Positions 2,341-63,649 of a stretch of DNA of 64,000 bases are shown here, piece by piece. Source of the stretch: a virus; IMG/VR virus record IMGVR_UViG_3300028840_006907, positions 64,001 through 128,000 of that record; one strand, written 5' to 3'. Every line of letters starts with the position of its first letter. The stretch's first letter is position 1. Under the pieces are notes generated by a model. That model saw only the letters and a list, made by a program, of their open reading frames with translations. It did not search any database and was not told the DNA's origin. The translations under genes were made by a program, and so were the position numbers.

Positions 2341-5300
2341 ATGTACTCTATTGATGATTTTATTCAAACTGTTTTTTCATATACTCTTCAGAAACAGAAA
2401 TTCTTCGCAGCAGCAGAACGTGCTTTAAAGAAAAATCTCCAATCCTATATACGCCCCGACTTTTTCGGAACTAGTTCGGGAGATGTCCGACTAGATAATT
2501 TACTTGTATCTCTCGCCAATAGATTGGGTGAAGCTGATGTTGAAGATAAAAGAATTTTTCTTGAAGATGCAGTAAGTGATTTTGTCTCAGAAGAGAAGGC
2601 TGACGAGTTAAGAGCAATCCTTGAAACCAAATTGGAAAGAAAACATAAAATCCCTGAAGAACTAGCTGATAAATTTATCAGTAAATCAGGTTTACTTGTT
2701 GATGAAGAGAAAAAAGAATTTGATCGTGTGAAGAAAGATATGGTCAAATTGATCTCAGGTTTTATTTACGGTTTCTTCGAAAATAAATTTAAAGAATTTG
2801 TACGAGCAAAAAAGAAAAAAGAAGATATCGGTAGAGAAGTAGCCCCGGATCTAGAAGTCCTGCCTGATAGTGAATTAATTGATCAAGCTGAAAAAGAACA
2901 AGAATGGCAAGAAGGTTTAACTAAAGATCTGTTTGGATATATCAATAAAAATGTTCCGGAAAAAAGGCGCTATGCTTATAAAATGATCTTGTTAAAAAGA
3001 TTTATGGTAGCACCAGCTAGTAGGATGGGTTTTGTTGAAATGGCAGAAAAGACAGGAATACCCAAATCATCTCTGGAAGAATGGGAAAAAGATTTGGGCC
3101 GTAGACTTGCTGAATATCTCTCTGCAGGTGGCCTTGGCCCTAAATTCGTTAGTGAGGGTGGCCTTTATAAAAAAGATGTTAAAGTTCCCGATTATAAAGA
3201 TGTTTTTAAAAACAAAGAGAATTCGAATGATTTCAAAGATTTCATGGAAGGCAAACAACCAAAAACCGGTAAACCCATGAGTGAGAAGGTAAAAAAAATA
3301 TTAGAGTTGTTTGCTGAAGGTAAAGATACCAAGGAAATCGAATCACAGACTGATGCGAGTATTGGTCAGATAAAAAAATTAAAAAGTACTCATTTCTCTC
3401 CCTGGTATAAAGAGTGGTATGCTGAAATGCTTAAGGATGTCAGAGAAGCTACAGAACGTATAAAGAAAGCTCTTATGATAATTAATGGTGAGACACCTCC
3501 TCCAGCTTCTCATGAGAAATATGTGAATATGGCAATAGCTAAAAAATACCCTCTTGAACTTACTGTAACTTTTAGTGCCAATTATGATAACCAGGATTTA
3601 ATAAAGGAAAGTGATCGAGTTGATCCGGAAAAAGACCCGGTTGATTTTAAATACAAACATTACCAGGTAAAATTAGAAAGGACCAGTAGACCCCGAATTG
3701 AATATACTTTTGATCAAAAATTAACCGATAAAGGTGATTTTGAAGGTAGCCCTCGATCATCATTGGTCATTGAAGGAAATCCTGGTCATGAAGGTTTGAG
3801 AAGAAGGCTCGATGAATATGTCGAGCAAGAAATGAAACCAGAGGGTATCCTTCCTTACGGTCCTTCGGTAAAGGGTAGAAAACCTGTCCAGATCCCTGTT
3901 GAATATGTAAATGAATCTCTTGATAGTACTAAGACCTATGATGGGTCTAAAAAAAGAAGATATCGTGGATTTATTGATTTCGCTGACAAGTACAAAGGTT
4001 TCATGGTAAAAGACCAACCTCATTTAACCCGGGTTCAGGAAGAAAGTAAAAGGGAAGAGAAGAAATTGTTACCTAAGGGTGGAAAAAATGAAATTCGAAA
4101 ATTGATCCAGCATTTAAAAGAAAATATTGGTGATGAAATGGAAGAGACTACACCCGATAAGAAAAAAGTTGAGGTGTGGAAAAAACAGATTAAAGAATTA
4201 CAGGATCATTTGAAGAAAGATTCTGAAAAAGAAATAGTGGATTTTGTCTCAAAACATAAAGAGAGGTTTAAATTCGCTGTCTCTGAAGAGCGCATGAAAA
4301 ATGTTCGTGAATTGATGAAACTCAGAGAACTAGTAGAAAACCAAGAACAACGATTGTTACAAAGAAAAATGAAAGGTGATCCTAAAGATAAGGATACAGT
4401 TAAACTTAAAGAAGATATAGCAACAAATAAAGATAAAATCACTAAGCTCGAAAAAATCCTTGAAGAAACAAAAGAGCCATTTCCTCCACCAGAATCGGCT
4501 AAAGTTCAAAAGTTATTAAAGGAACTTTCTGATCTCGGTATTAAAGACAGAAAATTAGAAGAATTCCTGACTTCAACTGATCTCCAATTTTTTGTTAACC
4601 AGGTACAAGGTGCTCTGGCCAAGGAAGCACAAGATAATATCGCAGGTGTTAAGAAAAACAAAAATATGAGTGATGAGGAAAAGAAACAGGAATATGAAGC
4701 TATTGAGAGAAAACGTGGTGTAAAGCTGAATAAATTTATCGAGTTGTTTGAAGCTGTACCTGAAGACATGAAAAAACGTCTGGAGAAATATAAAAAGGCT
4801 GATCCCAGTGGGTATAAAAAATTAGAAAAGAAGCATGGGGCTCTTTTAAACTGGGTAAATAATCCTGAAAAAGCCCTCTCTAAAGTAAAACAGAATCTTT
4901 CTACACCGAAAACTCTTGAGGCTCCAAAAGGTAAACAGGAATCAGTGGTACCTATGGAGGAAGAGGATGCTAAATACATGCTCAATTGGCTTGAGGCCCA
5001 GTTACAGGGTTTCGATGTTATAGGAGAAAGATTTGGTCAGGCAGCTTTAAAAGCAGAAGGTTTAAGTCCACAAGAGAGAGTTAAGGTAGAAAAACAATTA
5101 AAAGATACAGAAAAAGAGTTTCAGGATTTACGAAATAGAATAGGTGAAATGGAAGGTAAAGGGAAGGCTACCACTAGTGAAATCAAAGATCTGAAAAAAG
5201 ACATACCGACTTATATGAGAACAATAGAAGGTTTAAAAAGTTCTCTTTCTGATTCAAAAGAATCTCCTGCTATGATTATGGCACAAGTTTTAACTGATCG

Positions 5301-6885
5301 ACTTTCTGATTTCACTAAAATGTACAATCCGTTATCAAAGACTTTATGGTTTAGCCCAAAAACCTATGAGAAGAGAGCAGAAATTGTTACCAGTGAAGAT
5401 GATCCAGCTTTAGCTTCATTGCAAAAGAACATTGCTAAGGATACAGTTTCATTTTCAAAACTCAGCATCTTCGATAAAGAATCCATTAGATCTCTGGCAA
5501 GTACCATCCGGTCAGGTTTATCAAAATTCAAAAAGGAGTTACCAAGAATGGCCTCTTTTAATCCAATCTATTTAACAGTAGAAGAAAAAGCCCTTATGGA
5601 TAAACAAGCTAAGGAAGAAGATCACTTTGAAAAACGTGTTAAATTTGTTTTTCCTGAAGGTGAATTGAATGATGCCAAAAATATGGTAACTCAGCTCAAA
5701 GAGAAGAAATTAGATGATGCATCGAAAAAAGCTCAGAAAGAATTATCAGAATTAATTAAAAATGTCACAAGTGCCTATGATGATTTCGATATAGGTAAAA
5801 TTAAAGCATTGGCAGAAAAAGAGGAGATTTCTGAATCAAAAGCTGCTGTTCGTTTAAAAAGAATAAAAGACTCATTGGCTAAATATGCTCTAAGTCAATT
5901 CATTCTTAAGTGGCAAGATGTCATAGACATGGGATTTAAAGATACTCCAAGAAAGAAAGGACCTTTGGGAGGACCGGAATCCCAAAAATATGATAAAATT
6001 TTGGAAATAATTGAAGAGGATGTACCTGAGTTATTTAAAGAGGCTCCTCCTGAGAAAGAAATAAAAGAAGCTCCTAAAGGCTTACCTACTCCTAAGGAAA
6101 TCAGAGAACGTATCGAAATGGAATTTGAAGAAGGATTTCCAGCACAAAAAGAAAGAGAATACAGAACTCTGAAGGACAAAGGTCATAAATTATTCAAAGA
6201 TCCTTCTGGGGCTGGTGGTGGCGGTGGCGGAAAAGGTAAAAGTCGCCCAAAACCTATAAAGAAACATCCTCCTGCCCATACATATGAAACACTTAAGAGT
6301 AATTTCAAAGAAGCTCTGAAAACAAAATCAGTTCATGACATAGTACTTAGTGAAATAGGCAGGTATTTACATAATGTGAGAAATTATGTGAAAGGTGGCT
6401 CTTATTTCGATGTGGATGATGTTGTTGCTGGAGTTGTCGATGTATTGAAAAATTTTAAAAAAGTCATCAAATCATTAAGAGTAACCATGGATCCAGGAGC
6501 TACTGCAGATATAAAACTGAAAGATGAAAAAGAGGCAAAACAACTTTTTAATAAATTATCAGATATTTACAAATTAATAGATATGATTGCTGCTGATGAA
6601 AGTGGGAAACCTGTTATAAAAATAGGTCCTATACCAGGTGATCTGAGTAAGATAAAAACTCAACGTGGTGAACCCGATACCTGGTTCCCGAAAGGTCTTA
6701 TGGAAGCTGTTCAAGTAAAAAAACGAGAAGAGATTGAAGAAGGAGCAAAAGAGAAAGCTCCTGAAAAGTCAGTTTCAGCAAAAAAAGTATCAGCACAATT
6801 TTTGGCTTTTAAATTAGCACATAAGTTTTCCTTTTCAGATTTACAAAAGATTGAAGGTCTGAAAGAAGATATAGATAAAAAATAA
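2341..6885 (+). CDS. giant Lys/Glu-rich coiled-coil protein (1514 aa), function unknown
   Basis: Uninterrupted 4.5-kb ORF with a Gly run GAGGGGGGKGK. The N-terminal part has two HTH-like stretches (MGFVEMAEKTGIPKSSLEEWEK; TKEIESQTDASIGQIKKLK). Confidence 0.7.
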   Translation: MYSIDDFIQTVFSYTLQKQKFFAAAERALKKNLQSYIRPDFFGTSSGDVRLDNLLVSLANRLGEADVEDKRIFLEDAVSDFVSEEKADELRAILETKLERKHKIPEELADKFISKSGLLVDEEKKEFDRVKKDMVKLISGFIYGFFENKFKEFVRAKKKKEDIGREVAPDLEVLPDSELIDQAEKEQEWQEGLTKDLFGYINKNVPEKRRYAYKMILLKRFMVAPASRMGFVEMAEKTGIPKSSLEEWEKDLGRRLAEYLSAGGLGPKFVSEGGLYKKDVKVPDYKDVFKNKENSNDFKDFMEGKQPKTGKPMSEKVKKILELFAEGKDTKEIESQTDASIGQIKKLKSTHFSPWYKEWYAEMLKDVREATERIKKALMIINGETPPPASHEKYVNMAIAKKYPLELTVTFSANYDNQDLIKESDRVDPEKDPVDFKYKHYQVKLERTSRPRIEYTFDQKLTDKGDFEGSPRSSLVIEGNPGHEGLRRRLDEYVEQEMKPEGILPYGPSVKGRKPVQIPVEYVNESLDSTKTYDGSKKRRYRGFIDFADKYKGFMVKDQPHLTRVQEESKREEKKLLPKGGKNEIRKLIQHLKENIGDEMEETTPDKKKVEVWKKQIKELQDHLKKDSEKEIVDFVSKHKERFKFAVSEERMKNVRELMKLRELVENQEQRLLQRKMKGDPKDKDTVKLKEDIATNKDKITKLEKILEETKEPFPPPESAKVQKLLKELSDLGIKDRKLEEFLTSTDLQFFVNQVQGALAKEAQDNIAGVKKNKNMSDEEKKQEYEAIERKRGVKLNKFIELFEAVPEDMKKRLEKYKKADPSGYKKLEKKHGALLNWVNNPEKALSKVKQNLSTPKTLEAPKGKQESVVPMEEEDAKYMLNWLEAQLQGFDVIGERFGQAALKAEGLSPQERVKVEKQLKDTEKEFQDLRNRIGEMEGKGKATTSEIKDLKKDIPTYMRTIEGLKSSLSDSKESPAMIMAQVLTDRLSDFTKMYNPLSKTLWFSPKTYEKRAEIVTSEDDPALASLQKNIAKDTVSFSKLSIFDKESIRSLASTIRSGLSKFKKELPRMASFNPIYLTVEEKALMDKQAKEEDHFEKRVKFVFPEGELNDAKNMVTQLKEKKLDDASKKAQKELSELIKNVTSAYDDFDIGKIKALAEKEEISESKAAVRLKRIKDSLAKYALSQFILKWQDVIDMGFKDTPRKKGPLGGPESQKYDKILEIIEEDVPELFKEAPPEKEIKEAPKGLPTPKEIRERIEMEFEEGFPAQKEREYRTLKDKGHKLFKDPSGAGGGGGGKGKSRPKPIKKHPPAHTYETLKSNFKEALKTKSVHDIVLSEIGRYLHNVRNYVKGGSYFDVDDVVAGVVDVLKNFKKVIKSLRVTMDPGATADIKLKDEKEAKQLFNKLSDIYKLIDMIAADESGKPVIKIGPIPGDLSKIKTQRGEPDTWFPKGLMEAVQVKKREEIEEGAKEKAPEKSVSAKKVSAQFLAFKLAHKFSFSDLQKIEGLKEDIDKK

Positions 6886-6923: not shown

Positions 6924-7682
6924 TTGGAGACATCTGTGAAGTATAGCGTACTTGTACCCTACTATAAACGCCTAGGGCACCTACATAATACCTTTATTTC
7001 CTTTCTACACCATTATTCAGATAGAAATGATTATGAGGTTGTCATAGCAGAAGATTATAAAAATGTCCAGAATAAAAAAGACCATGACGGTCTATCAGAA
7101 ACCATTGAGAAATTCCGTGAAAAAATACCGATAATTCATTTAACTCTTTCTATGGAAACCTGGAATCCAGCTCATGGTTTTAATGAAGCTGCAAAGTGGG
7201 CTTCTGGTGAATATTTCGTTGTAACCAATCCAGAATGTTTCCATCAAGTGAACATACTGGCTGGACTCGATAAAGAATTTGAAGAAGACCCCAATGTCTA
7301 TGTTGTATGTGGTTGTATGAATTATGTCCGTTGTAATTTTTTTATTAAAAACTTTAATGATCTAAATGGAAAATTTCAGAGATGGTACCAACACTCAATA
7401 CATAGAGCAGCCCACTATCATTTCTGTTCAGCTATTTCAAAACAGAATTGGGTAAAAATAGGAGGATTCGATGAAGACTTTGCTATGGGTATAGCCTATG
7501 ATGATGTCGATTTTAAATTAAGCATTCAAAAAGCCAAGATACCCTTTCATATCCGGGATGACCTTCTTACTATACATATTGACCATGGTTCCTTCCCATC
7601 TCCTCCAAATGCTCAGAAATTAGTTAATCGAAATAGAATCACCTATCAAAGAAAATGGGAAGGAAGTAATGAATCTTACTAG
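6924..7682 (+). CDS. family-2 glycosyltransferase
   Basis: YSVLVPYYKR N-terminus, EDY and DDVDF acidic motifs. The start may be GTG at 6936, 5 nt after GGAGA. Confidence 0.7.
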   Translation: METSVKYSVLVPYYKRLGHLHNTFISFLHHYSDRNDYEVVIAEDYKNVQNKKDHDGLSETIEKFREKIPIIHLTLSMETWNPAHGFNEAAKWASGEYFVVTNPECFHQVNILAGLDKEFEEDPNVYVVCGCMNYVRCNFFIKNFNDLNGKFQRWYQHSIHRAAHYHFCSAISKQNWVKIGGFDEDFAMGIAYDDVDFKLSIQKAKIPFHIRDDLLTIHIDHGSFPSPPNAQKLVNRNRITYQRKWEGSNESY

Positions 7683-9762
7683 TTATACCGCAGCCGACAG
7701 TATCCCGATAAAATTGATTAAGAACTTTAAATTGTTAAAGTCCATGACAACAAAAGGAGTCATCTTACCAATCCATGTCCAGTTCATACCCACAAATAGA
7801 TGTAACATGAAATGTGGATTTTGTAGCTGTGCTGAAGATGACAGAAAAACAGAAATGTCCCTTAAAAATGCTAAGAAGATCATCAGAAAATTAAAAAAAC
7901 TCGGTACTCAATCCGTAACCATCACCGGAGGAGGAGAACCACTCCTTTATCCTCATCTCCAAGAATTGTTTTCTCTGTTTAAAGATGCCGGGATAAAAAT
8001 CGGTTTTGTTACCAATGGCCTCTTATTAGGTAAATGTACCTATGAAGATGTAACCTGGTGTCGGATTTCTAATTCTGATGAAAGAAAAATGGACATGGAC
8101 TATTATCACACAATAGCTTATGCTGTTGAAGATAACCCAAACGTGGACTGGGCCTTTAGTCATGTCGTTTCTCCAAAACCAAATATCTCCGAAATAAAAC
8201 GGATCATAGAATTTGCCAATCTCCATGATTTTACCCATGTCCGATTAGTAGCTGATCTATTGAATTATAAAGAAGTAGATTTAATGCAGTTAAAAATCAC
8301 TCTTCGAGATGAAAATGTCGATGATGATAAAGTCATCTATCAAAGTAGAAATACCCCGCTCAGAGGCGGAGACTGTTATATATGCTATCTTAAACCCATG
8401 ATAGGGGCTGACTGTAATGTGTACGCTTGTTGTTTAGAGGCTAATGAACCTGTATTAATCCAGAGAAATAACGAAAGGATGTATTTATCTATAAAGGATG
8501 TTGTTCCAGGGGATTATGCTTGTGAATATGGAAAGATTTTAAATGTGTTTCATAAAGAGGGTGAAGAAGGCTTGGAAATAGTTTTGCAAAATAATAGGAC
8601 TATTTATGTTTCGAAAGATCATCTTATGCTTAAATTGACAAACCCTGAAATTAGACATAAGAGAAAGAAGTTATTATCTGACTATGAATTAGATACAATA
8701 GAATCTTCTGAATTAAGAATTGGAGATTTACTTCCGGTCAAATATAAATATGATATTAGTGAAATAAAAGAAGATACTATATCTGAAGAAGAAGCAGAAT
8801 TAATAGGATATTATGTAGCTGAAGGTTGGTCCAATGAACGAACTTGTATAGTTGATAAAAAATATCCTACTAGAACTACCACTATAGGATTTATGCTAGG
8901 GAAAGAGTCAAGAGAATATATAAGAAGATTTGAAGAAATTTGTGATATTTTGAATCTAAATTTTTCTATGACTGAACGTAGAACTGGTATGCAGTATCAG
9001 ATAGGTGCACATAAACCCTACGATGACTTAATTGTACACTGTGGTAATAAAGCAGAATTAAAAAAGATCCCTCCTTTTATTTTAAACGGCTCTGATAAAA
9101 TAAAGTGGAAATTTATTCAAGGCTATTTTGGAGGTGACGGGAATTTTCAAACTCCTTCTAAAAGCTATGATGGTTTTAAAATGAGAATGAGTACTGTCAG
9201 TAGACAACTAGCTAATGATATAATTTATCTCTTTTGTACTTTAAATATTCATGCTTCTATGAGAGTTGAGAGACGTGAAGGAAAAATGATAATAGAAGGA
9301 AGAGAGGTAAATGCTAAAGATCGGTATCATATAAATATAGGGGGAGCCTATAATTTAGAAAAAGCCCCATTCCTAAATGTAATTCAAACAAAAGAAAGAA
9401 GTCCTAAAAGAGCCCTCGGTTTTTTGAAAGATGAGGATAAGGGCATTATGTTTGTACCAGTTAAAGAGATCAGAGAGAAAAAGTTAGGAAAATTAGTAGA
9501 CATTCAAGTGGAAGGTTCAAATAAATTTATATCTTCATTTGGTATAATAGTTCATAATTGTGGCGTCCAGTATGCTCTTAAAAAGCCTTCAAAGAATCTT
9601 CCTAAGAAACTGAGCCTAGGAAGTGCTTTTGATCTTGAGAAGATAATTGAGAACAGTAATAAGCCCCTGGACGGGAGCATGTGTTATCGATGCTATTATA
9701 GTAATTATAACAAGATACTAGGATCCATCCTGGATGATACCGATCATATGGAGTTTGTATGA
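7669..9762 (+). CDS. radical SAM enzyme interrupted by an intein
   Basis: CNMKCGFC (CxxxCxxC) and a GGGEPLL SAM motif. The extein is 321 aa after removing residues encoded by 8431-9558. Confidence 0.85.
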   Translation: MNLTSYTAADSIPIKLIKNFKLLKSMTTKGVILPIHVQFIPTNRCNMKCGFCSCAEDDRKTEMSLKNAKKIIRKLKKLGTQSVTITGGGEPLLYPHLQELFSLFKDAGIKIGFVTNGLLLGKCTYEDVTWCRISNSDERKMDMDYYHTIAYAVEDNPNVDWAFSHVVSPKPNISEIKRIIEFANLHDFTHVRLVADLLNYKEVDLMQLKITLRDENVDDDKVIYQSRNTPLRGGDCYICYLKPMIGADCNVYACCLEANEPVLIQRNNERMYLSIKDVVPGDYACEYGKILNVFHKEGEEGLEIVLQNNRTIYVSKDHLMLKLTNPEIRHKRKKLLSDYELDTIESSELRIGDLLPVKYKYDISEIKEDTISEEEAELIGYYVAEGWSNERTCIVDKKYPTRTTTIGFMLGKESREYIRRFEEICDILNLNFSMTERRTGMQYQIGAHKPYDDLIVHCGNKAELKKIPPFILNGSDKIKWKFIQGYFGGDGNFQTPSKSYDGFKMRMSTVSRQLANDIIYLFCTLNIHASMRVERREGKMIIEGREVNAKDRYHINIGGAYNLEKAPFLNVIQTKERSPKRALGFLKDEDKGIMFVPVKEIREKKLGKLVDIQVEGSNKFISSFGIIVHNCGVQYALKKPSKNLPKKLSLGSAFDLEKIIENSNKPLDGSMCYRCYYSNYNKILGSILDDTDHMEFV
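8431..9558 (+). mobile_element. LAGLIDADG-type intein (376 aa) inside the radical SAM gene
   Basis: N-terminal junction YAC|CLEANEPVL; block B SKDH. Two LAGLIDADG motifs (LIGYYVAEGW, FIQGYFGGDGN). C-terminal junction GIIVHN|C. Confidence 0.85.
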
Positions 9763-11983: not shown

Positions 11984-12025
11984 TCTAGGAATGTAAAGTA
12001 TTAGAGGATTATTAAGGGGAGGGAA

Positions 12026-15018
12026 ACCCCGCTCAGATGCAGGGAAGAAGATTTCATTAAGAAGTTTTAGGAAGAGCCCCGCAGAGGAGGAACCTCGCAA
12101 GATGCGGGGAAAAGGAACTTCAGGCAATTGGCTGGGATTAGCCCCGCGAAGGTGCGGGGAAAACAGTTTCCATGAACTATATTAGGGAGAGCCCCGTTGA
12201 CACGGGGAAAAACCCGTCTTTACTTAGTGAGATCGAGGAAGGAACAGCCCCGTTGATACGGGGATAAAATAATATGACTTTTACGAATCCTCTAGGGACA
12301 GCCCTGCAGAGTGCAGGGAAAAGTAACGTCTGGGAATTGTTTAGGATTAGCCCCGCGAAGGTGCGGGGAAAGCCATAGATTTTATATTGACACAGGAAAA
12401 ACCCCGGTATAGTCCGGGGAAAAGTACGTAATCAAGATGTAAGAGGATTAGACCCGGCGAGTCCGGGAAAAGATTGGCCCAATCACTATTAAGTAGGGTG
12501 GGATAGCCCCGCAGAATGCAGGGAATAGATGCCTCACTTCATACCACTGCGTCAACCCCAGTAGAGTCCGGGGAACATGAGTGTAAATCTCTGTCGTAGG
12601 TTCAACCCCGGAGAGATCCAGGGGAAATGGGTACAACTTTGTGTACAAGGGGTAGCCCCGGAGAAATCCGAGGAAAATGAGTGTAAATCTGTGTTGAGGG
12701 TCCAGCCCCGCTCAGTGCAGGGAATATTAAGGGTCAAAACCGGTTGCCCCTGCGTCAACCCCGGTGAAGTCCGGGGAACATGAGTGTAAATCTCTGTGGT
12801 AGGATCAACCCCGCAGAGTGCAGGGAAAAATTGAACTTTTTAATCAACCCTGTAACAGCCCCGGAGTCAGTTTTGACAAGTCCGGGGGAATATCACTTCG
12901 TAAAGGAGTGGCTGTCAAGGGGGCAACCCCACAGAGATGTGGGGGAAAGTAAGCCAACGTTCCGGCATAGGCATAGCCCCTGAATTTACAGAGGGCAATT
13001 TTTCCAGTGTCCAGAAGAAGATGCAGGGAGAACCCCGGAAAGTCCAGGGGAAAATGTGTCACAGAACAACTCTTTGTGATCTCCAGGGTGAACCTCGCAG
13101 AGGTGCGGGGGAAAAGTGTCAATGAATACCAGTATGAGTCAGCCCCGGTATAGCCCGGGAATAATTACTTCTAGTCTGATAGAAGGTGCAACCCCGGGAA
13201 GTCCGGGGAAATCGGTCATAGCCATCTGGACCAGGAAGAACCCCGGTGAGATCCGGGGAAAAGGACGTTTAAATCCTGACATAGTAGCTAACTGAGGCGT
13301 AGCTCCGGTCGGGTCAGCCCTGCAGAGAGCAGGGAACAAACATAGGTAATAAATCGGCACGTGACAGCCCCGCAGAGAGGCGGGGATATATAGCGTGAGT
13401 TGCAGGGTAAGGTTCAACCCTTGTTTACCAAGGGAAAAATACCGGCAGATAAGAATTTAGGATGACCCCCGGTGAAAGTCCGGGGAAAATAATTAATACG
13501 CAAAACAGCAGGGCCAGTCCCGCGAGATGCAGGGAATGTTCAGCCAGTTTGTGTAATATTTCAGGAGACGGTGGTGCAACCCTGTCAAGGACAGGGATAT
13601 GCAACATCTGTGGCTCTACGAGGATCAGCCCCGGCAAGTCCGGGGAATTATCTTTTTATAAATGCCAAAAATAACAGTTGGGAGGGGCCAATTCCGCTGA
13701 TGCAGAAAGACATTTCATAATTAATATATTTATGGAAGAGCCCCGGTGAAATCCGGGGAAGTCAAGTAATTACAGCTCGCTGACCACTGGGGGTAGCCCC
13801 GGTAAGATCCGGGGAAAAGTTTGTTTTGAAACAAACGCTAGGAACAGCCCCGCTCAGGTGCGGGAGAATCACTGCATATTTGGTTAATGGCCCCCCTGAG
13901 TCAATCCCGCTCAGGTGCGGGGAAAATAAAGAGATAGACTAATTCAATATGCAGGAAGAACCCCGCTATATGCAGGAAAATTTAAAAAGTATGGATATCT
14001 CCTTGAGTCAACCCCGGAGATCCAGGGAAATGTAGGCACTCGTTGTCCTTTGTCGAAGTGTGAAGGGCAAACCTCGTTGATACGAGGAACAAATTTAGTT
14101 TTACTTTTGAATAAAAGTGGTCAAGCCCCGCTCAGGTGCAGGGAATAGATAAGTATACCGACGATAGCCAGGACAGCACCTGTGGTTTAGCCCTGCATGT
14201 GCAGGGAATAGTTGAGTTGAAGATTGAAGAAAAAGATAAAGTAGGGTCAGCTCTGCATGTGCAGAGAATAGCCTTTCTTCAAGCGTTGACTTGGGAGTAG
14301 GTGGGGATCAGCCCTGCACATGCAGGGAATAGAATGGTGAATCAAATTCCATTTTGTCAAAGAACGGCGACAGCCCTGCCAGTGCAGGGAATATGATTTT
14401 AACGATGGTAAAATTGGGAAGGGGTCAGCCCTGCACATGCAGGGAATAGTCGCTAGTTCAAATCCAATCGCCCCGACAGGATCAGCCCTGCATACGCAGG
14501 GAATAGAAAATACTGACGATAAACTAGCGATATGGGATCAGCCCTGCATACGCAGGGATATAGCTTGACGAATGGCCGTTTTAATGCCAGGAGTAACCCC
14601 GCTGCGAGGAATAGTCATTTCAAATATATAGGTAAAGCCCCGCGAAAGAGCGGGGGTATAATATGGCGGATTTTGTTCTATTGGTGGAATCCGGGCCATC
14701 CCCGTAGATTGACACGGGGAGATCTTTTAGAAATCTACCAAGGTGCCTTTCCGGAGTCATCCCCGTATATACGGGGGAGATTTCAATTCAGGGAATTTCG
14801 GTACAAAATTGGTCGGTTTATCCCCGTATACACGGGGAATATTGTTTCAATAGGGCATAGCAGATCTAGGATCGGGGAATCCCCGCAGGGGCGGGGAACA
14901 TCTCGGATTTATTAATCAAATTCAAACGTTTTTCGGGGAATCCCCGCAGGGGCGGGGAACATTGTTTTAAGAGGTGGTAGTTACCTCGTAGGGGAATCCC
15001 CGCAGGGGCGGGGAACAT
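12026..15018 (-). CRISPR. CRISPR array 1 with highly heterogeneous I-E-like repeats (~55 units)
   Basis: Three identical leader-proximal repeats, GGGGAATCCCCGCAGGGGCGGGGAACAT, start at 14874, 14935 and 14991. Read on the minus strand they are ATGTTCCCCGCCCCTGCGGGGATTCCCC, close to the type I-E consensus GTGTTCCCCGCGCCAGCGGGGATAAACCG. Hairpin units then continue every 49-62 bp down to ~12026. Confidence 0.9.
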
Positions 15019-18933: not shown

Positions 18934-20019
18934 TTAGAAATCGATGAATTTAATAAGTTCGTTAAGTGATCCTTCTTTTGTGAGTACATTCAAGATCCTA
19001 TAATCCATTTCATGGTAACATGAATCAAAACTACTTTTCATGTCAAGAAGGGCTTTGACAGCATTTTCCATAACCGCAGGACCTTTAATAGGAGTATGGA
19101 AGGCTTGACAGAGACTTCGTGGGGCAGTTGGAGCTTTTTCGATCATAACGAATGCTGGCCATGTTTGACTATCAGCACATCTGTTTTTATTAGCTGAGGG
19201 GGATGAAGTGGTTAATACTTCGACTATCTGTCGGATGGTTTTGATAGCTAGTTCTTTATTACCTTGAAGATTTTTCGTTAAGAGCTTGGAATTGATTACA
19301 AAGAAACTATAATAGACACCCTGGGTAAAATAGAAATTATCTAGGTGACCTGAACCTTTGGTTCCTTCTAATCCAAGGTTATCGGTAGCTGTAAAATAGT
19401 CGGTTTGGACAGATCCTATATCATTGACAGTAAAAGCGAAATTTGAGGACAGTGAAGCTTCAACATCATATTGGGGCAGTTTTGCAATCATGCGACCGGT
19501 AAGGGCTGTTCTGATTCCTGTATTTTCTTTTAAAAAGAAGAATTCTTGATCAGTGGGTTTATGCCCCTCAATAATTTTGTCAATCAGTTCTTCAATATGT
19601 TGTCTTTCGCTCGGTTGAATTTTAATGGTTTCGGTTTTAAGAAGATCAACCTTTTTTTTCTTTTTCTTTGTATTTTTATCATCTTCTTTTTCAGTGTGCT
19701 TTTTGATATCAACAAAAGTACCAATAAATTTAAATGCGTATTCTTCAGCTTTTTTAGGTGATATTCCACCATCAATTAATCTTTTCTCGACATATTTTCC
19801 AATAAGAGGAGTCTGAAGACCTATATCGATTTCGCACCTTTCAAATAGAGCCTTGTTTAAATCATATTTTCGATTTTGTGAAGACGAATAACCTCGGTTG
19901 GTATCATTAAGTTTCATTGTTTTAGGACGTCCGTCCTGGCCTCGGTTTATGCTAGATACAGCTACACCAGTGAGAAGGTGAATTAACCAGTAGGGGTCTT
20001 TAATAATAGTTTTAGACAT
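18934..20019 (-). CDS. cas7e: Cas7e (CasC/Cse4) backbone subunit
   Basis: LIHLLTGVAVSSINRGQDGRPKT...RGYSSSQNRKYDLNKAL parallels CasC (HVLISHSPSCLNRDD...RISSQSLKRAMR). 361 aa, like CasC. Confidence 0.85.
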   Translation of the reverse strand: MSKTIIKDPYWLIHLLTGVAVSSINRGQDGRPKTMKLNDTNRGYSSSQNRKYDLNKALFERCEIDIGLQTPLIGKYVEKRLIDGGISPKKAEEYAFKFIGTFVDIKKHTEKEDDKNTKKKKKKVDLLKTETIKIQPSERQHIEELIDKIIEGHKPTDQEFFFLKENTGIRTALTGRMIAKLPQYDVEASLSSNFAFTVNDIGSVQTDYFTATDNLGLEGTKGSGHLDNFYFTQGVYYSFFVINSKLLTKNLQGNKELAIKTIRQIVEVLTTSSPSANKNRCADSQTWPAFVMIEKAPTAPRSLCQAFHTPIKGPAVMENAVKALLDMKSSFDSCYHEMDYRILNVLTKEGSLNELIKFIDF

Positions 20020-20045
20020 AAATACTCCTTGATATTTATTATTTA

Positions 20046-21989
20046 TTATATGTTATTTGAATATTCTCTTTCCCAGTAGAACTTGACATCTTTGCTCCAG
20101 TGGGCATACCCTTCCATGAAACTGATGATGTTAAATCCTTCCATTCGAGAAACAACATCAGCAAATACTTTCCAGTTTTTTTGTATATCCGTTTTATTGA
20201 AACTCATCATTTCGTCAACATGTCGGCGGTTAATTTTTTGAGAACCCATTTGGGCACCGAAAGATTGAGAAAAATCCAGATCCTTAGCTTTAAAAACAAT
20301 TAGTAGAAGAGGTACGAAAAGAGTCTTCATATCTTCTGATCTTAAAGCAGGGAAATGCATAGACATTTCTAAAATAAAATTCAAATAAAGGTCTTCATGT
20401 TTTAAGATATCGATGTCAAAACATCGGGTAAATACCCTATGTTTTTCTGTATTTCTAATAGTCCCGTACCAGGACAGGAATGGTTTGGTAAAGACCTGGT
20501 TAAAATGAGGTAGGTTTAATTTCCTGTATTCGATATGGGCGAAATTCTCATATTCTAATGGTTGTAGTTTAAGAGGTTTAACAACTTTTTTATTTAAGGT
20601 TTCGATAAATTGTTCCTTAAAATATTTCTGTAAACCTCTCTTTTCAGTACCTACATTTTTTTCAAATGTATCGAAAGCTTTAACTACCATCTTTTCCAAC
20701 CATTTTTCGATATTATGATTCTTGAGAACTTCATAGAAGTATTCTTCAGTTTCTGTCAGAAATTCGTGAAATATTAAAGGTTCGGTTTTATCAGTTCCCC
20801 AGAACTTTCTTATATAATTACAGGTATACCATCCTATAAGATATGAGTGTTCTCTGATATTTAAAGTAAACGCACTATCTTTATAGAGTTCTTCTGGGAT
20901 ATCGAATTTATTTTCCTCCCATCCAAAGAGTTTGGCTTTAGCCATATTATAACCGAAAGTCCATAATCCGAAATCAGTTATTCCAAGATATTCTCGGTTC
21001 TCCATGAAATGACTCACCACTAAAGCTGGAGTTAATTTTTTAGCTGGTAGTAGATAGGTCACAAGATCGAGATGGCTGGTAAAGTCCAGGGGTTTCCGGA
21101 AACCTGTTTCTTTGCCTTTTATAATGGGTGAAAGGATATGACGTGGTTTGACATAACAGTTACCATAATTCCTCGTTTTTATCTTTCTAACCATTAATTT
21201 GGAATGATTGCCACAGATAGTACATGATTCATCAAATTTATCAAAGATAAGATGAATACGTAGAGGCATTTCCCAGAGCGGGTAATAAGGATTCATCTCA
21301 TCCAGGGAAACAGTAGCTTTGTTTTTACTATCAACGGTATCACTAAGCCATGGGAGTGTTACACCTTTTGGATTTCCTCCGAATTCAAACATGGTCTTTT
21401 TAATAATAACATTAGACCATATTGTTTCCCATAACGTGGAACCGGTAATAATAGTGGTAAGAGAACCATTGGCACCGGCTGTTATCGAAGTACGGTATCC
21501 TTGGCCTCCCATAATGGCACTGAGTTGATTAAGATAAAGGGCAATTGTAGCACAGGATTGGCAAAAAGTATGTATCTTTGCTTTTTGGAAGAAATCTTTA
21601 CCAGCTTTAATTGTCGCTGTCCCTGGAGTATCAAAGAGGAGATTACCAACATTTACGATTCTTTCAAGGTCCTGTGGCCGTTTATCCTGTAAAAAACGAG
21701 GACCTTTGCCATCTAGTTCAAAGAGTTTTGGTTTAAGTTTTTCTAGGATGGCTTTTTGGTTTGGTGCTTTTTTGAATAGTTTTTTCCATTCTTTCTTACT
21801 TGTAGGAGCAAGATAAGTGTTGAAAAAACCTATGAGAAGCCGTACACCTACAGCATTGAAATCGGGTCTACCGAAATCGAGAGCTATTATAGGGTTATTA
21901 GGTTTTGAAGTTATTTTGTAGGGTGGAATGTTTTCCCTGGTACCGTCTTTTCGGATGACGGGGATCCAAGGGTCCTTAATTACATTCAT
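20046..21989 (-). CDS. cas8e: Cas8e (Cse1) large subunit with fused Cas11/Cse2-like C-terminal domain
   Basis: N-terminus MNVIKDPWIPV and CQSCATIALYLNQ...GGQGYR parallel Cse1 (NWIPV; CGGCTAIALFNQ...GGGFK). The C-terminal ~170 aa (SFGAQMGSQKINRRHVDEMM...HWSKDVKFYWEREY) parallels Cse2 (SLGRALANSGRINERRIFQLI...WWGKRERQQLLEDF). There is no separate cas11 gene. Confidence 0.8.
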   Translation of the reverse strand: MNVIKDPWIPVIRKDGTRENIPPYKITSKPNNPIIALDFGRPDFNAVGVRLLIGFFNTYLAPTSKKEWKKLFKKAPNQKAILEKLKPKLFELDGKGPRFLQDKRPQDLERIVNVGNLLFDTPGTATIKAGKDFFQKAKIHTFCQSCATIALYLNQLSAIMGGQGYRTSITAGANGSLTTIITGSTLWETIWSNVIIKKTMFEFGGNPKGVTLPWLSDTVDSKNKATVSLDEMNPYYPLWEMPLRIHLIFDKFDESCTICGNHSKLMVRKIKTRNYGNCYVKPRHILSPIIKGKETGFRKPLDFTSHLDLVTYLLPAKKLTPALVVSHFMENREYLGITDFGLWTFGYNMAKAKLFGWEENKFDIPEELYKDSAFTLNIREHSYLIGWYTCNYIRKFWGTDKTEPLIFHEFLTETEEYFYEVLKNHNIEKWLEKMVVKAFDTFEKNVGTEKRGLQKYFKEQFIETLNKKVVKPLKLQPLEYENFAHIEYRKLNLPHFNQVFTKPFLSWYGTIRNTEKHRVFTRCFDIDILKHEDLYLNFILEMSMHFPALRSEDMKTLFVPLLLIVFKAKDLDFSQSFGAQMGSQKINRRHVDEMMSFNKTDIQKNWKVFADVVSRMEGFNIISFMEGYAHWSKDVKFYWEREYSNNI

Positions 21990-22266: not shown

Positions 22267-22586
22267 CAGCCCCGGTAAAGTCCAGGGAAATAAAAATTAG
22301 TGATAATTCGGGAATCAGCAGGAGGAGAGCATCAGCCCTGCGTATGCGGGGAATAGTGTTATCGTCTTACAGGATGTAAAGCAGAGACAGCCCCGCGTAT
22401 GCGGGGAATAGAAATTAATACATCTCATAAAATCTAGCATCAGCCCCGCGTATGCGGGGAATAGTTATTTATCTATACTTCCTACAACTCCCATAACGCA
22501 TCAGCCCCGCGTATGCGGGGAATAGCTCGTTGGTTTTCCCATTCCACAAAAGTTCAACGCATCAGCCCCGCGTATGCGGGGAATAG
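22267..22586 (-). CRISPR. CRISPR array 2 (6 repeats)
   Basis: GCATCAGCCCCGCGTATGCGGGGAATAG occurs at 22437, 22498 and 22559, with variants at 22329 and 22384 and a divergent unit at 22267. The two leader-proximal spacers are 33 nt. Minus-strand reading is CTATTCCCCGCATACGCGGGGCTGATGC. Confidence 0.9.
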
Positions 22587-47789: not shown

Positions 47790-47872
47790 CATTCTTTAAG
47801 TGGTATACACAACTTAAAGAGCGGTCCTTCATGTTAACGTAGGTAATTTTCTCTGTAAGTTGTTGATTTATA

Positions 47873-48282
47873 TGGAGGTGAGGAGAGTTGAACTCCTGTC
47901 CGCGAAGGTATCTTGAGTAAACCTCTACATGTTTAGTCTATGGTTTAAATCTTATTCATAATCACGTTCACAGACAAACTTAATTAAGAACCAGTCTCTA
48001 GTCTCATTCATTGGTCAAGACTCCTCAATGAACCAGAACCCGTTTGGCTATCCGGAATTAACAGGGTTCAGTTAAAACCGGATTTGTCGTTTTTTGTTTA
48101 AACGACGGCTTCTTCTGCTTGATGAATAGCAGCAAGGTTAAGTGCTGAAAACATCGCACAGAAGTTAACTGTATTAGTTTTTTCAGTTATTATTGAAATC
48201 GGCTTTTTTACGAGGCCAACCGATTAACCTCGACATGCAGTTTACATTTCAACTCATCACGTCGAAAACCAAGTACACCCCC
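47873..48282 (-). ncRNA. ssrA: tmRNA
   Basis: 5' end GGGGGTGTACTTGGTTTTCGACG. 3' end AGGAGTTCAACTCTCCTCACCTCCA (T-arm plus acceptor). Acceptor GGGGGTG/CACCTCC has a G3-U70 pair (Ala identity). CCA is not encoded. Confidence 0.85.
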
Positions 48283-54689: not shown

Positions 54690-54765
54690 GGGCCGGAATG
54701 TTCCAAGGGGGCGAGAATGCCTTGCAAGCAATCTGCGGTGAGTTCGATTCTCACTCGGTCCACCA
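54690..54765 (+). tRNA. tRNA-Ala(TGC) with poorly paired D-arm
   Basis: Exactly 76 nt. G3-U70 present. Anticodon loop CTTGCAA, T-arm GTGAG-TTCGATT-CTCAC, CCA encoded. The D-stem (tgtt/gcga) has only 2 of 4 pairs. Confidence 0.6.
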
Positions 54766-62845: not shown

Positions 62846-62858
62846 GTTCTTTGAAATA

Positions 62859-63064
62859 AATAAGTATATCGAGTCCACGCGCAGATGTTAAGTCTGTGAG
62901 GAAGCTCAGGACATCACCGCTGACGGAAGGAGACGTAAGTCGTAGGTACTTCCTAGGATGCAACACAAACAGACCTATGCCGGTGAGCGGGGCTATGATG
63001 GTCGGGTTAGTGGCAAAGATAAATGTGGACATAAAACAGAATCCTGGCTACGGATATACTTATT
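62859..63064 (+). ncRNA. rnpB: minimal RNase P RNA-like gene
   Basis: GAGGAAGCTCAGGAC (62898-62912) parallels the bacterial CR-I GAGGAAAGUCCGGGC. ACAGAATCCTGGCTAC (63036-63051) parallels CR-V ACAGAACCCGGCUUA. The two strands form P4 (AGC-U-CAGGA with UCCUG-GCU) with a bulged U. P1 is 12 bp perfect (62859-62870 with 63053-63064). P2 pairs gtccac with gtggac. AGATAAATG parallels AGAUGAAUG. Confidence 0.7.
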
Positions 63065-63068
63065 ATAC

Positions 63069-63176
63069 GGAGAGGTAGGTTTAATTGGTAAAATCAGTGC
63101 TTTGCACAGCACCTAAGCTAGCAAGGTGCCATTCCAGGGATGGATTTCGGGGTTCAAGTCCCCGTCTCTCTGCCAA
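63069..63176 (+). tRNA. aberrant 108-nt tRNA-like gene (anticodon uncertain)
   Basis: Canonical acceptor GGAGAGG/TCTCTCT, D-arm, T-arm CGGGG-TTCAAGT-CCCCG and CCA. Between the D-arm and T-arm lie ~53 nt with competing hairpins. Confidence 0.5.
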
Positions 63177-63186
63177 TAAATTATAC

Positions 63187-63275
63187 GGAGGTAGACCGGC
63201 TGGACGAGGAGCCTGTCTTGAAAACAGGTAGGGCTGTAAAAGGTCTTCGGGGTTCAAGTCCTCGTGCCTCCGCCA
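63187..63275 (+). tRNA. tRNA-Ser(TGA), type II
   Basis: Acceptor GGAGGTA/TGCCTCC, anticodon loop CTTGAAA, long variable arm, CCA encoded. Confidence 0.85.
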
Positions 63276-63459: not shown

Positions 63460-63549
63460 GAGTAGGAGGTCAGATAGTGGTTGGCTGCACCGGACTGTAA
63501 ATCCGGATCTCGTAAAGGGACGCTGGGGGTTCGACGCCCTCCCTACTCA
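63460..63549 (+). tRNA. tRNA-Tyr(GTA), type II
   Basis: Acceptor GAGTAGG/CCTACTC, anticodon loop CTGTAAA, long variable arm. Confidence 0.85.
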
Positions 63550-63563
63550 TTTGTCAATTTTAT

Positions 63564-63649
63564 GGAGAGCAACCGAATGGTTAGGAGGCGGTTTCGAAAA
63601 CCGTTAAGGCTGAAAGGCTAACTAAGTTCGATTCTTAGGCTCTCCGCCA
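63564..63649 (+). tRNA. tRNA-Ser(CGA), type II
   Basis: Acceptor GGAGAGC/GCTCTCC, anticodon loop TTCGAAA, long variable arm, CCA encoded. Confidence 0.85.

Follow-up and report, generated by a model that had tools for sequence, protein, structure and literature searches.

The best explanation for an oversized tRNA-like gene of 107 nt, located in the tRNA array of a phage with a genome of roughly 0.4-0.47 Mb, is that it is the fifth, redundant serine-type (class II) tRNA gene of that phage, now either a relic or, at the very most, a "punctuation" element for processing. That it is a non-decoding relic of a Ser tRNA, a redundant and lineage-specific paralogue, we judge to be on balance probable. 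The gene lies in a stretch of 64,000 nt (positions 64,001 to 128,000 of IMG/VR record IMGVR_UViG_3300028840_006907), which we call the window and whose coordinates are used below unless a contig is named.

The 107-nt gene is a genuine tRNA-like gene with a serine class II scaffold. A length of 108 nt had been given for it in the original prediction; the real length, CCA included, is 107 nt, and position 63176 is an additional A outside the gene. The tRNA-like acceptor stem, D-arm, T-arm, G73 and CCA named there are all present as judged by sequence, Rfam and fold. Acceptor, D and T arms all align to the Rfam tRNA model (RF00005), with a marginal score of 30.1 bits against a gathering threshold of 29 and an E-value of 0.03 for the whole window or 5e-4 for the 1.1-kb region; ARAGORN at default settings did not call the gene in the window. 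Each of the 7+5+5 scaffold pairs is either standard or G·U, the acceptor stem GGAGAGG/UCUCUCU having G·U at pairs 1:72 and 7:66, and the nucleotides of the tertiary contacts (U8, G18-G19 and the T-loop) are intact. The discriminator G73 (63172) is accompanied by a long, base-paired variable arm (pair probabilities about 0.65-0.74 in the folding ensemble), the pair of features by which class II tRNA-Ser is recognized. This serine class II scaffold had been overlooked, as had the fact that the gene is a singleton.

Table. Coordinates of the 107-nt gene, its parts and neighbours, and of related or unusual elements. Positions without a contig name refer to the window.
Feature	Location	Strand	Remarks
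Promoter-like motif gttctttgaaat	62846-62857	+	conserved, before mini RNase P RNA-like gene
Mini RNase P RNA-like gene	62862..63061	+	Rfam RNaseP_arch 46.8 bits, E 8e-12, threshold of 84 not reached
Leader attatac	63062..63068	+	second copy at 63180-63186, before tRNA-Ser(UGA)
107-nt tRNA-like gene	63069-63175	+	CCA included
Acceptor stem, 5' strand GGAGAGG	63069..63075	+	first 9 nt of gene = GGAGAGGTA
D-arm GGUUU-AAUUGGUA-AAAUC	63078..63095	+	best read as 5-bp stem GGUUU/AAAUC with GG in loop
12-nt insertion GUGCUUUGCACA	63097..63108	+	between tRNA positions 26 and 27
Ancestral anticodon arm GCACC(U)-AAGCUAGCA-(A)GGUGC	63109..63129	+	from folds and alignment
Long variable arm UCCA-GGGA-UGGA	63133..63144	+	class II feature
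T-arm CGGGG-UUCAAGU-CCCCG	63148..63164	+	canonical
Acceptor 3' strand UCUCUCU, discriminator G73 and CCA	63165..63175	+	
Canonical tRNA-Ser(UGA)	63187..63275	+	D-arm type differs from that of relatives' gene
Mini RNase P RNA-like copies	L001 ~7100-7420, L103 ~6350-6540, L090 ~7326-7440		
Mini RNase P RNA-like copies	L088 ~2211-2370, L235 2237-2427, also L082-L089		
ACAGC-motif tRNA scaffolds	L134 527-640, 710-820, 1052-1166, 1253-1367; L143, L167, L164		
ACAGC-motif stand-alone copies	L085, L140, L142, L150, L151, L154, L155, L168, L173		
Long-arm tRNA oddities	L083 (oriented) 5936-6026, L084 1316-1407, L087 528-620, L175 ~4695-4782		
Long-arm tRNA oddities, further contigs	L170, L139, L149, L161, L163, L138, L153		
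Cas genes	18934-21989	-	
5-repeat array	22326-22586		
Hairpin-repeat field	12000-14300		

The middle of the gene is indeed oversized, but it counts 52 nt and not the ~53 reported, and the proper comparison is with the ~33 nt of the gene's own class II family; by that standard the excess is 19 nt in the middle and 21 nt gene-wide, not about 31. Because the 33 nt at 63097-63129 contain GUGC, GCAC, GCAC and GUGC, several pairings compete within this segment. In the minimum-energy fold (-35.0 kcal/mol, about 73% of the ensemble), the insert at 63097-63108 pairs with 63121-63129 in a G·U-rich helix of 9 bp, GUGCUUUGC/GCAAGGUGC, which has three G·U pairs and an AGC/GCU cap. The second fold (-34.5 kcal/mol, about 25% of the ensemble) consists of a mini-hairpin GUGC-UUU-GCAC followed by GCACCU-AAGCUAGCA-AGGUGC. 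Neither of these two leading folds gives a standard anticodon arm: in the first, the anticodon region is taken up by the 9-bp helix, in the second it has a 9-nt loop on a stem of 6 bp, a 5-bp stem closing a 7-nt loop with U33 and a purine at position 37 is not found in the gene, and the Rfam tRNA model and a Ser covariance model each require an insertion of 16-18 nt in the anticodon loop. The hairpin GCACCT-AAGCTAGCA-AGGTGC described earlier, with CTA at the centre of a 9-nt loop, is present. Its proposed competitor, GTGCT-TTGCACA-AGCAC, counts one A twice; the actual sequence, GTGCT-TTGCAC-AGCAC, has a 6-nt loop and carries ~0.2% of the ensemble weight. Nor are the hairpins strictly exclusive of each other, as had been stated, since GUGC-UUU-GCAC and GCACCU...AGGUGC are able to coexist (~25% of the ensemble). 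A hairpin is likewise favoured where CCAT...ATGG had been proposed, but it is the variable-arm hairpin TCCA-GGGA-TGGA, whereas the proposed pairing takes C61 from the preceding helix. The folding energy of the whole molecule is only marginally better than that of shuffled sequences (z = -1.78), and the non-random part of the gene is its tRNA scaffold, not its total folding energy.

In global alignments against the 487 tRNA genes predicted across the loci fetched by that stage, the best matches of the 107-nt gene were the tRNA-Ser(GCU) genes of L001, L104 and L090. Its first 9 nt, GGAGAGGTA, are identical to those of the Ser(GCU) genes of L104 and L235, and its last 34 nt (63142-63175) are 91% identical to the tRNA-Ser(GCU) of L235. 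The D-loop AAUUGGUA is the loop of the relatives' GGAUAAUUGGUAAUCC-type Ser tRNAs, the D stem having gained one U-A pair. Both this D-loop and the anticodon stem GCAyC/GGUGC-C match the Ser(GCU) gene of L001, in which the anticodon stem GCAUC...GGUGC corresponds to the stem at 63109..63129. The anticodon loop has gone from 7 nt (CUGCUAA) to 11 nt (UAAGCUAGCAA), or to 9 nt plus a U-A pair, and the enlarged loop retains GCU and, overlapping it, CUA. Of the 21 nt by which the gene exceeds the 86-nt family, 12 are the insert GUGCUUUGCACA, 4 belong to the anticodon loop and 3 to the variable arm, and the extra U-A pair of the D stem accounts for the rest. The Ser covariance model, made from 13 phage Ser tRNAs, scored the gene at 33.8 bits, with the extra bases falling in the D stem, anticodon loop and variable arm, although this model is unspecific in that every tRNA of the window scores with it. 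Where the gene departs from its nearest homologues, several of the changes are compensatory (in two pairs of the T stem, in one of the D stem and in the inserted U-A pair), and the remaining pair differences from L001, L104 and L235 are changes from G-C to G·U. The 12-nt insert is a perfect small palindrome adjoining GCAC. Template-switch (quasipalindrome) mutation yields palindromic products of this kind, and the insert would appear to resemble one. These alignments demonstrate, at the level of sequence, a descent from the GGAGAGGTA...GTCTCTCCGCCA tRNA-Ser(GCU) lineage of the phage clade, and by the same comparison small insertions, namely the 12-nt palindrome at 26/27 and the 4 loop nucleotides, are seen to have destroyed the standard anticodon arm.

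The neighbouring ATP-grasp protein led to related contigs when its homologues were sought in IMG/VR, in JGI metagenomes and in a set of 5.8 billion proteins; the relatives' proteins share 75-85% amino acid identity with it (82-85% for the best). These relatives retain the arrangement Ser(GCU)-Cys-[RNase P-like RNA]-Ser(UGA)-His-Tyr. tRNA-Ser(UGA) comes immediately after the RNase P-like RNA in L103 (with L101/L104), L090, L126, L233 and L235; a single ORF lies between the two in L001, and Cys is followed directly by Ser(UGA) in L128 and L234. The 107-nt gene was absent from every one of these contigs, all of which span the slot, and in the window phage it fills the place that the relatives give to tRNA-Ser(UGA). 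Public copies of the window phage genome are all 100% identical across the region: the window equals NCBI JAEORW010000001.1 (469,617 bp) and JGI Ga0180437_10000019 (388,651 bp) over the 4 kb compared, and exact-protein look-ups returned identical copies of the same phage only. An exact 27-mer from the 5' part of the gene had no match in IMG/VR. A degenerate pattern (D-loop...T-arm...GCCA with an oversized middle) yielded no orthologue in IMG/VR and GTDB (185,579 genomes), returning normal long-arm Ser tRNAs plus unrelated oversized genes, and a T-arm/acceptor pattern of the Ser(GCU) lineage found normal genes of 86-90 nt only in IMG/VR. Against GenBank phages, BLAST matched the 1-kb region only to generic tRNAs. 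No description of a comparable gene emerged from the literature searches; theta ribozymes, which occur beside phage tRNAs, are a different element (bioRxiv 10.1101/2023.06.13.544163). By these comparisons the 107-nt gene is, to all appearances, a redundant, lineage-specific survivor of an older Ser type.

The window phage has more than 22 tRNA genes plus a tmRNA. As the original prediction had it, the 107-nt gene stands just after an RNase P RNA-like gene in the tRNA array; this mini gene of ~200 nt lies directly upstream and ends at ~63061. The 5' context that the 107-nt gene was said to have in common with the following tRNA-Ser was also confirmed: each stands behind the leader ttattatac, whose attatac part (Table) has its counterpart in the leader a(c)tat(t)tac of the relatives' tRNA-Ser(UGA). 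In addition, 63147-63164 (a U plus the T-arm) is identical at 17/18 positions to the T-arm of the adjacent tRNA-Ser(UGA). A motif gttctttga(a/c)at is found at 62846 and at ~63308 (before tRNA-His), with counterparts in L001. Because this promoter-like motif precedes the RNase P-like RNA and recurs before tRNA-His, the arrangement suggests that the mini RNase P RNA, the 107-nt gene and tRNA-Ser(UGA) may form one short transcription unit. The core 18-mer of the mini RNase P RNA-like gene, GTGAGGAAGCTCAGGACA, was found in 9 IMG/VR phage contigs, and in the stretches retrieved this gene was always among tRNA genes. In 6 of the 10 phages carrying the RNA, a tRNA begins no more than ~10 nt from its 3' end, so that co-processing of the RNase P-like RNA and the following tRNA is plausible.

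Canonical Ser tRNAs with the anticodons GCU, UGA and CGA are present in the window, a fourth (GGA) lies just past it at L130:8976, and there is an ordinary tRNA-Cys 300 nt upstream of the 107-nt gene. The canonical Ser tRNAs of the window phage have a D-arm type unlike that of the relatives' genes, with the exception of Ser(CGA), which is similar to the L090 gene. The tRNAs of this phage are divergent. The genes for tRNA-Tyr(GUA) (63461-63547), tRNA-Ser(CGA) (63564-63649) and tRNA-Ala(UGC) (54690-54765) were missed by default ARAGORN and fell below the Rfam gathering threshold, being visible with relaxed settings or the Ser covariance model only. A downstream "tRNA-Stop(UUA)" was called at a relaxed threshold only, was gone at default and was rejected. 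In the relative L001, a tRNA-Sec(UCA) at 8313-8411 (Rfam tRNA-Sec, 64.3 bits) lies between tRNA-Tyr and tRNA-Ser(CGA); the window phage has no tRNA-Sec at the equivalent position.

Several properties of the 107-nt gene are those of a pseudogene: an essential element is lost, the function is redundant and the gene is absent from relatives. Pairs 1:72 and 11:24, G-C in relatives, are G·U in this gene, which looks like relaxation. Uncompensated disruptive changes in stems were, however, not found in the gene; every standard helix is still perfectly paired and the inserted sequences themselves form neat helices, both of which run counter to the relic reading, a reading drawn from one sequence. Because all scaffold pairs are intact and several differences are compensatory, which is unexpected in an old pseudogene, the data suggest either that the scaffold has been selected for or that the break happened very recently. 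As a relic, the gene would no longer decode codons and would probably still be transcribed with the RNase P RNA and tRNA-Ser(UGA). The features by which RNase P recognizes its substrates are the acceptor/T-arm stack, the elbow and the CCA. Since the acceptor stem, T-arm, D-loop/T-loop elbow and CCA are all intact, the 107-nt RNA would then probably still be excised as a stable tRNA-like RNA, and its excision would also set the 3' end of the RNase P RNA. The RNA may even carry serine, because SerRS does not read the anticodon. A role as a processing element is something that we infer purely from this arrangement, and the downstream tRNA-Ser(UGA) could serve equally well.

The combination of an intact scaffold and a remodelled middle would also be expected of a tRNA-scaffolded small RNA, in which a Ser-tRNA body provides processing and stability and the switching 33-nt middle is the functional payload (for example a decoy, a protein-binding module or a regulator), a reading that we consider unlikely. 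The two alternative folds, near-equal in energy (73% versus 25% of the ensemble), speak for it, as do tRNA scaffolds in L134, L143, L167 and L164 (Rfam tRNA, 47-53 bits) in which the anticodon loop is replaced by 44-55 nt with a hairpin and an invariant ACAGC(A/U)A. The middle of the 107-nt gene aligned to one such insert with a score of 24 against a shuffle mean of 12.6 (p ~0.001 uncorrected), but this value fails much correction for multiple comparisons (about 5-20 comparisons); the link between the middle and the ACAGCAAU-motif inserts is a single alignment and probably due to chance. Moreover, the window phage and its relatives showed no clear ACAGCAAU elements, and the "ACAGC next to helix" test is non-discriminating, as 45-55% of all ACAGC sites pass it. 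A regulatory RNA, as suggested in the original prediction, is conceivable, but the 107-nt gene is a singleton without conservation and an antisense-target search of the window returned no complementary site but the gene itself. Less likely again is the wider proposition that the gene produces a natural tRNA-scaffold RNA (processed, stable, perhaps serylated and maybe kin to the ACAGC inserts) or that its 9-nt loop reads a non-triplet or stop codon. Less likely still, taken by itself, is the possibility of a working non-standard tRNA. Such a tRNA would be charged with serine and, with the 9-nt loop AAGCUAGCA on its 6-bp stem, would decode UAG, AGY or a codon of 4-5 bases, with suppression or frameshifting as the result. 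G73 and the long variable arm are serine identity elements, the indifference of SerRS to the anticodon is established, the loop holds GCU as well as CUA, and the acceptor and T arms required for EF-Tu binding are intact. However, neither GCU nor CUA has a U33 or R37 context, the loop-exposing two-hairpin fold is the minor form (about 25%), relatives do without the gene, and a 12-nt hairpin stands at the D/anticodon junction, for which we know of no precedent among decoding tRNAs. The window is also in the standard code: ORFs of at least 100 aa (code 11) cover 83% of it, TAG ends 11 of the 82, and the window (64 of about 470 kb) gave no sign of stop-codon recoding. An amber suppressor, as envisaged earlier, is thus not borne out, with CUA lying between G's (AAG-CUA-GCA) in a 9-nt loop that lacks U33 and R37, and with TAG in use as a stop.

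The earlier suggestion of an intron was examined by enumerating all single excisions that result in a Y-U-NNN-R-N loop on a 5-bp stem. Six excisions qualify, each of which removes 16 nt and uses the weak stem GUGCU/GGUGC (three G·U in five pairs), and the anticodons that result are AGC, GGC, GCC or GCA (Ala, Gly, Cys), never Ser, on a Ser scaffold with G73 and a long variable arm. A Ser anticodon (NGA or GCU) in a standard loop was not found; GCU occurs only within the 11-nt (or 9-nt) loop, preceded by AA. The excision test can succeed for intron-like inserts, because the short inserts of other phage and MAG tRNA genes (L174, L165 and L186) do yield perfect cognate loops on removal. These genes, together with the placement of the 16-18-nt insertion within the anticodon loop by both the Ser covariance model and Rfam, are points in favour of an intron-bearing pre-tRNA that is spliced to a standard tRNA. 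So too is the result of ARAGORN with its intron option, tRNA-Cys(GCA) with an 11-nt intron, but we rejected this model: it needs a G·A mismatch in the stem, it places C37 and U38 in the loop, its identity is wrong for a G73 class II scaffold, and a normal tRNA-Cys is already encoded upstream. A group I intron would not fit into an insert of 16-21 nt. Neither a splicing endonuclease nor an RNA ligase was found among the 10 large ORFs scanned (part of the genome), an Rfam E-value scan gave no ribozyme match, and no bulge-helix-bulge motif was seen by eye on its predicted folds. We regard the intron as the weakest of the readings and as very improbable.

The survey brought up other unusual tRNA genes. 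In L165 (IMGVR_UViG_3300028887_001689), an otherwise perfect tRNA-Asn(GUU) at ~7263-7446 is split within the anticodon (CUGU/UAA). The intervening tRNA-like element of 109 nt is equipped with an acceptor stem, a D-arm TTTAATTGGTAAA (shared with the 107-nt gene), a T-arm, G73 and CCA of its own, and its middle is oversized. The arrangement is a tRNA within a tRNA; in principle, the outer halves could be ligated back together once RNase P and RNase Z have made their cuts. Inserts of 30-50 nt in or beside the anticodon occur in L174 (c5991-6093), L186 (Omnitrophota MAG QNCG01000033.1; 3360-3476), L148 (1799-1919) and L185 (c699-810). Simple excision gives a cognate 7-nt loop for tRNA-Asn (CUG/32 nt/UUAA) and tRNA-Ser (CUUG/~30 nt/AAA). 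These inserts are too short for group I introns, and we know of no bacterial mechanism for removing them. Oversized tRNA-like genes of 102-117 nt with normal acceptor, D and T arms were seen in the tRNA arrays of other huge phages, namely in L086 (c4198-4314), L085 (c469-570) and L120 (8391-8492), that of L086 having G73, a long variable arm and two hairpins instead of an anticodon arm; the oversized kind makes up about 1% of the tRNA-like genes in the surveyed loci. Unexpected long variable arms (Table) were found on tRNA-Lys(UUU) and tRNA-Ile(UAU), and Ser-like scaffolds (G73 plus long arm) with a GUU (Asn) anticodon in several phage contigs. The ACAGC inserts belong to a recurrent RNA-like motif, AAG-N5-NN-ACAGC(A/U)A(U/A)-35-70 nt-N5'-CUUG, that is free-standing just past tRNA 3' ends, often enclosing a T-arm-like hairpin, or replaces anticodon loops; its elements matched no Rfam family at the gathering threshold.

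Elsewhere in the window, the phage has Cas genes resembling those of type I-E (Cse1, E 5e-48; CT1975/Cas7, E 1e-52), accompanied by a regular array of five repeats, CAGCCCCGCGTATGCGGGGAATAG. Dozens of degenerate hairpin repeats (A/GCCCCGG...CCGGGGAA), at a spacing of ~50 nt, make up a field of 2.3 kb. An intein that contains a LAGLIDADG homing-endonuclease domain splits a radical SAM protein (7669-9762, +). The tmRNA (47870-48282, -; Rfam 159.9 bits) has a predicted tag peptide that is unusually long, at 28 aa.

If the 107-nt gene is a relic, it offers a snapshot of tRNA gene turnover in the tRNA arrays of huge phages, in which a Ser tRNA would have been duplicated, its isoacceptors replaced by genes of another type and the old copy broken by palindrome-forming insertions. 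If its scaffold is under selection, it would add to the hints from other contigs that phages reuse tRNA bodies as carriers of, or processing signals for, RNA modules. Oversized tRNA-like genes of this sort call for caution before they are read as introns or suppressors.

Compared with known systems, the 107-nt gene resembles the tRNA pseudogenes of arrays in being redundant with intact isoacceptors, lineage-specific and deprived of its decoding element, but its other helices and its tertiary contacts are intact and its differences compensatory. Like MALAT1 mascRNA and mitochondrial "tRNA punctuation", it places an acceptor/T-arm RNase P substrate 3' of a non-coding RNA, and the Rfam mascRNA model gives it a weak match of 20.6 bits; those systems are eukaryotic or organellar, whereas processing of the 107-nt RNA is predicted and the next tRNA could do the same job. 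With quadruplet or frameshift and amber suppressors it has in common an enlarged loop with a central CUA and its phage origin. Known suppressors, however, keep U33, R37 and loops of 7-8 nt and have no additional hairpin, and the window shows no sign of recoding. The additional sequence in the anticodon-arm region recalls intron-containing tRNAs, but, unlike bulge-helix-bulge or group I introns, it amounts to 16-21 nt in two or three places, contains no ribozyme core, leaves no cognate loop upon excision and shows no bulge-helix-bulge by eye. Allo-tRNAs (Mukai et al. 2017, PMC5389517) are likewise metagenomic and combine a Ser-type scaffold with a non-Ser or odd anticodon arm; they have 8/4 or 9/3 acceptor/T-stem pairs and normal 7-nt loops, in contrast to the 7/5 arrangement and the lack of a normal loop here. 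From the phage and bacterial class II tRNA-Ser of the GGAGAGGTA...GTCTCTCCGCCA type, the gene differs in its length (107 nt versus 86), its 5-bp D stem, G1·U72, the 12-nt hairpin at 26/27 and a 9-11-nt loop in place of the 7-nt anticodon loop, but it has with them in common the 7-bp acceptor stem, G73, CCA, the D-loop AAUUGGUA, the stem GCAyC/GGUGC, a long variable arm, a canonical T-arm and near-identical ends.
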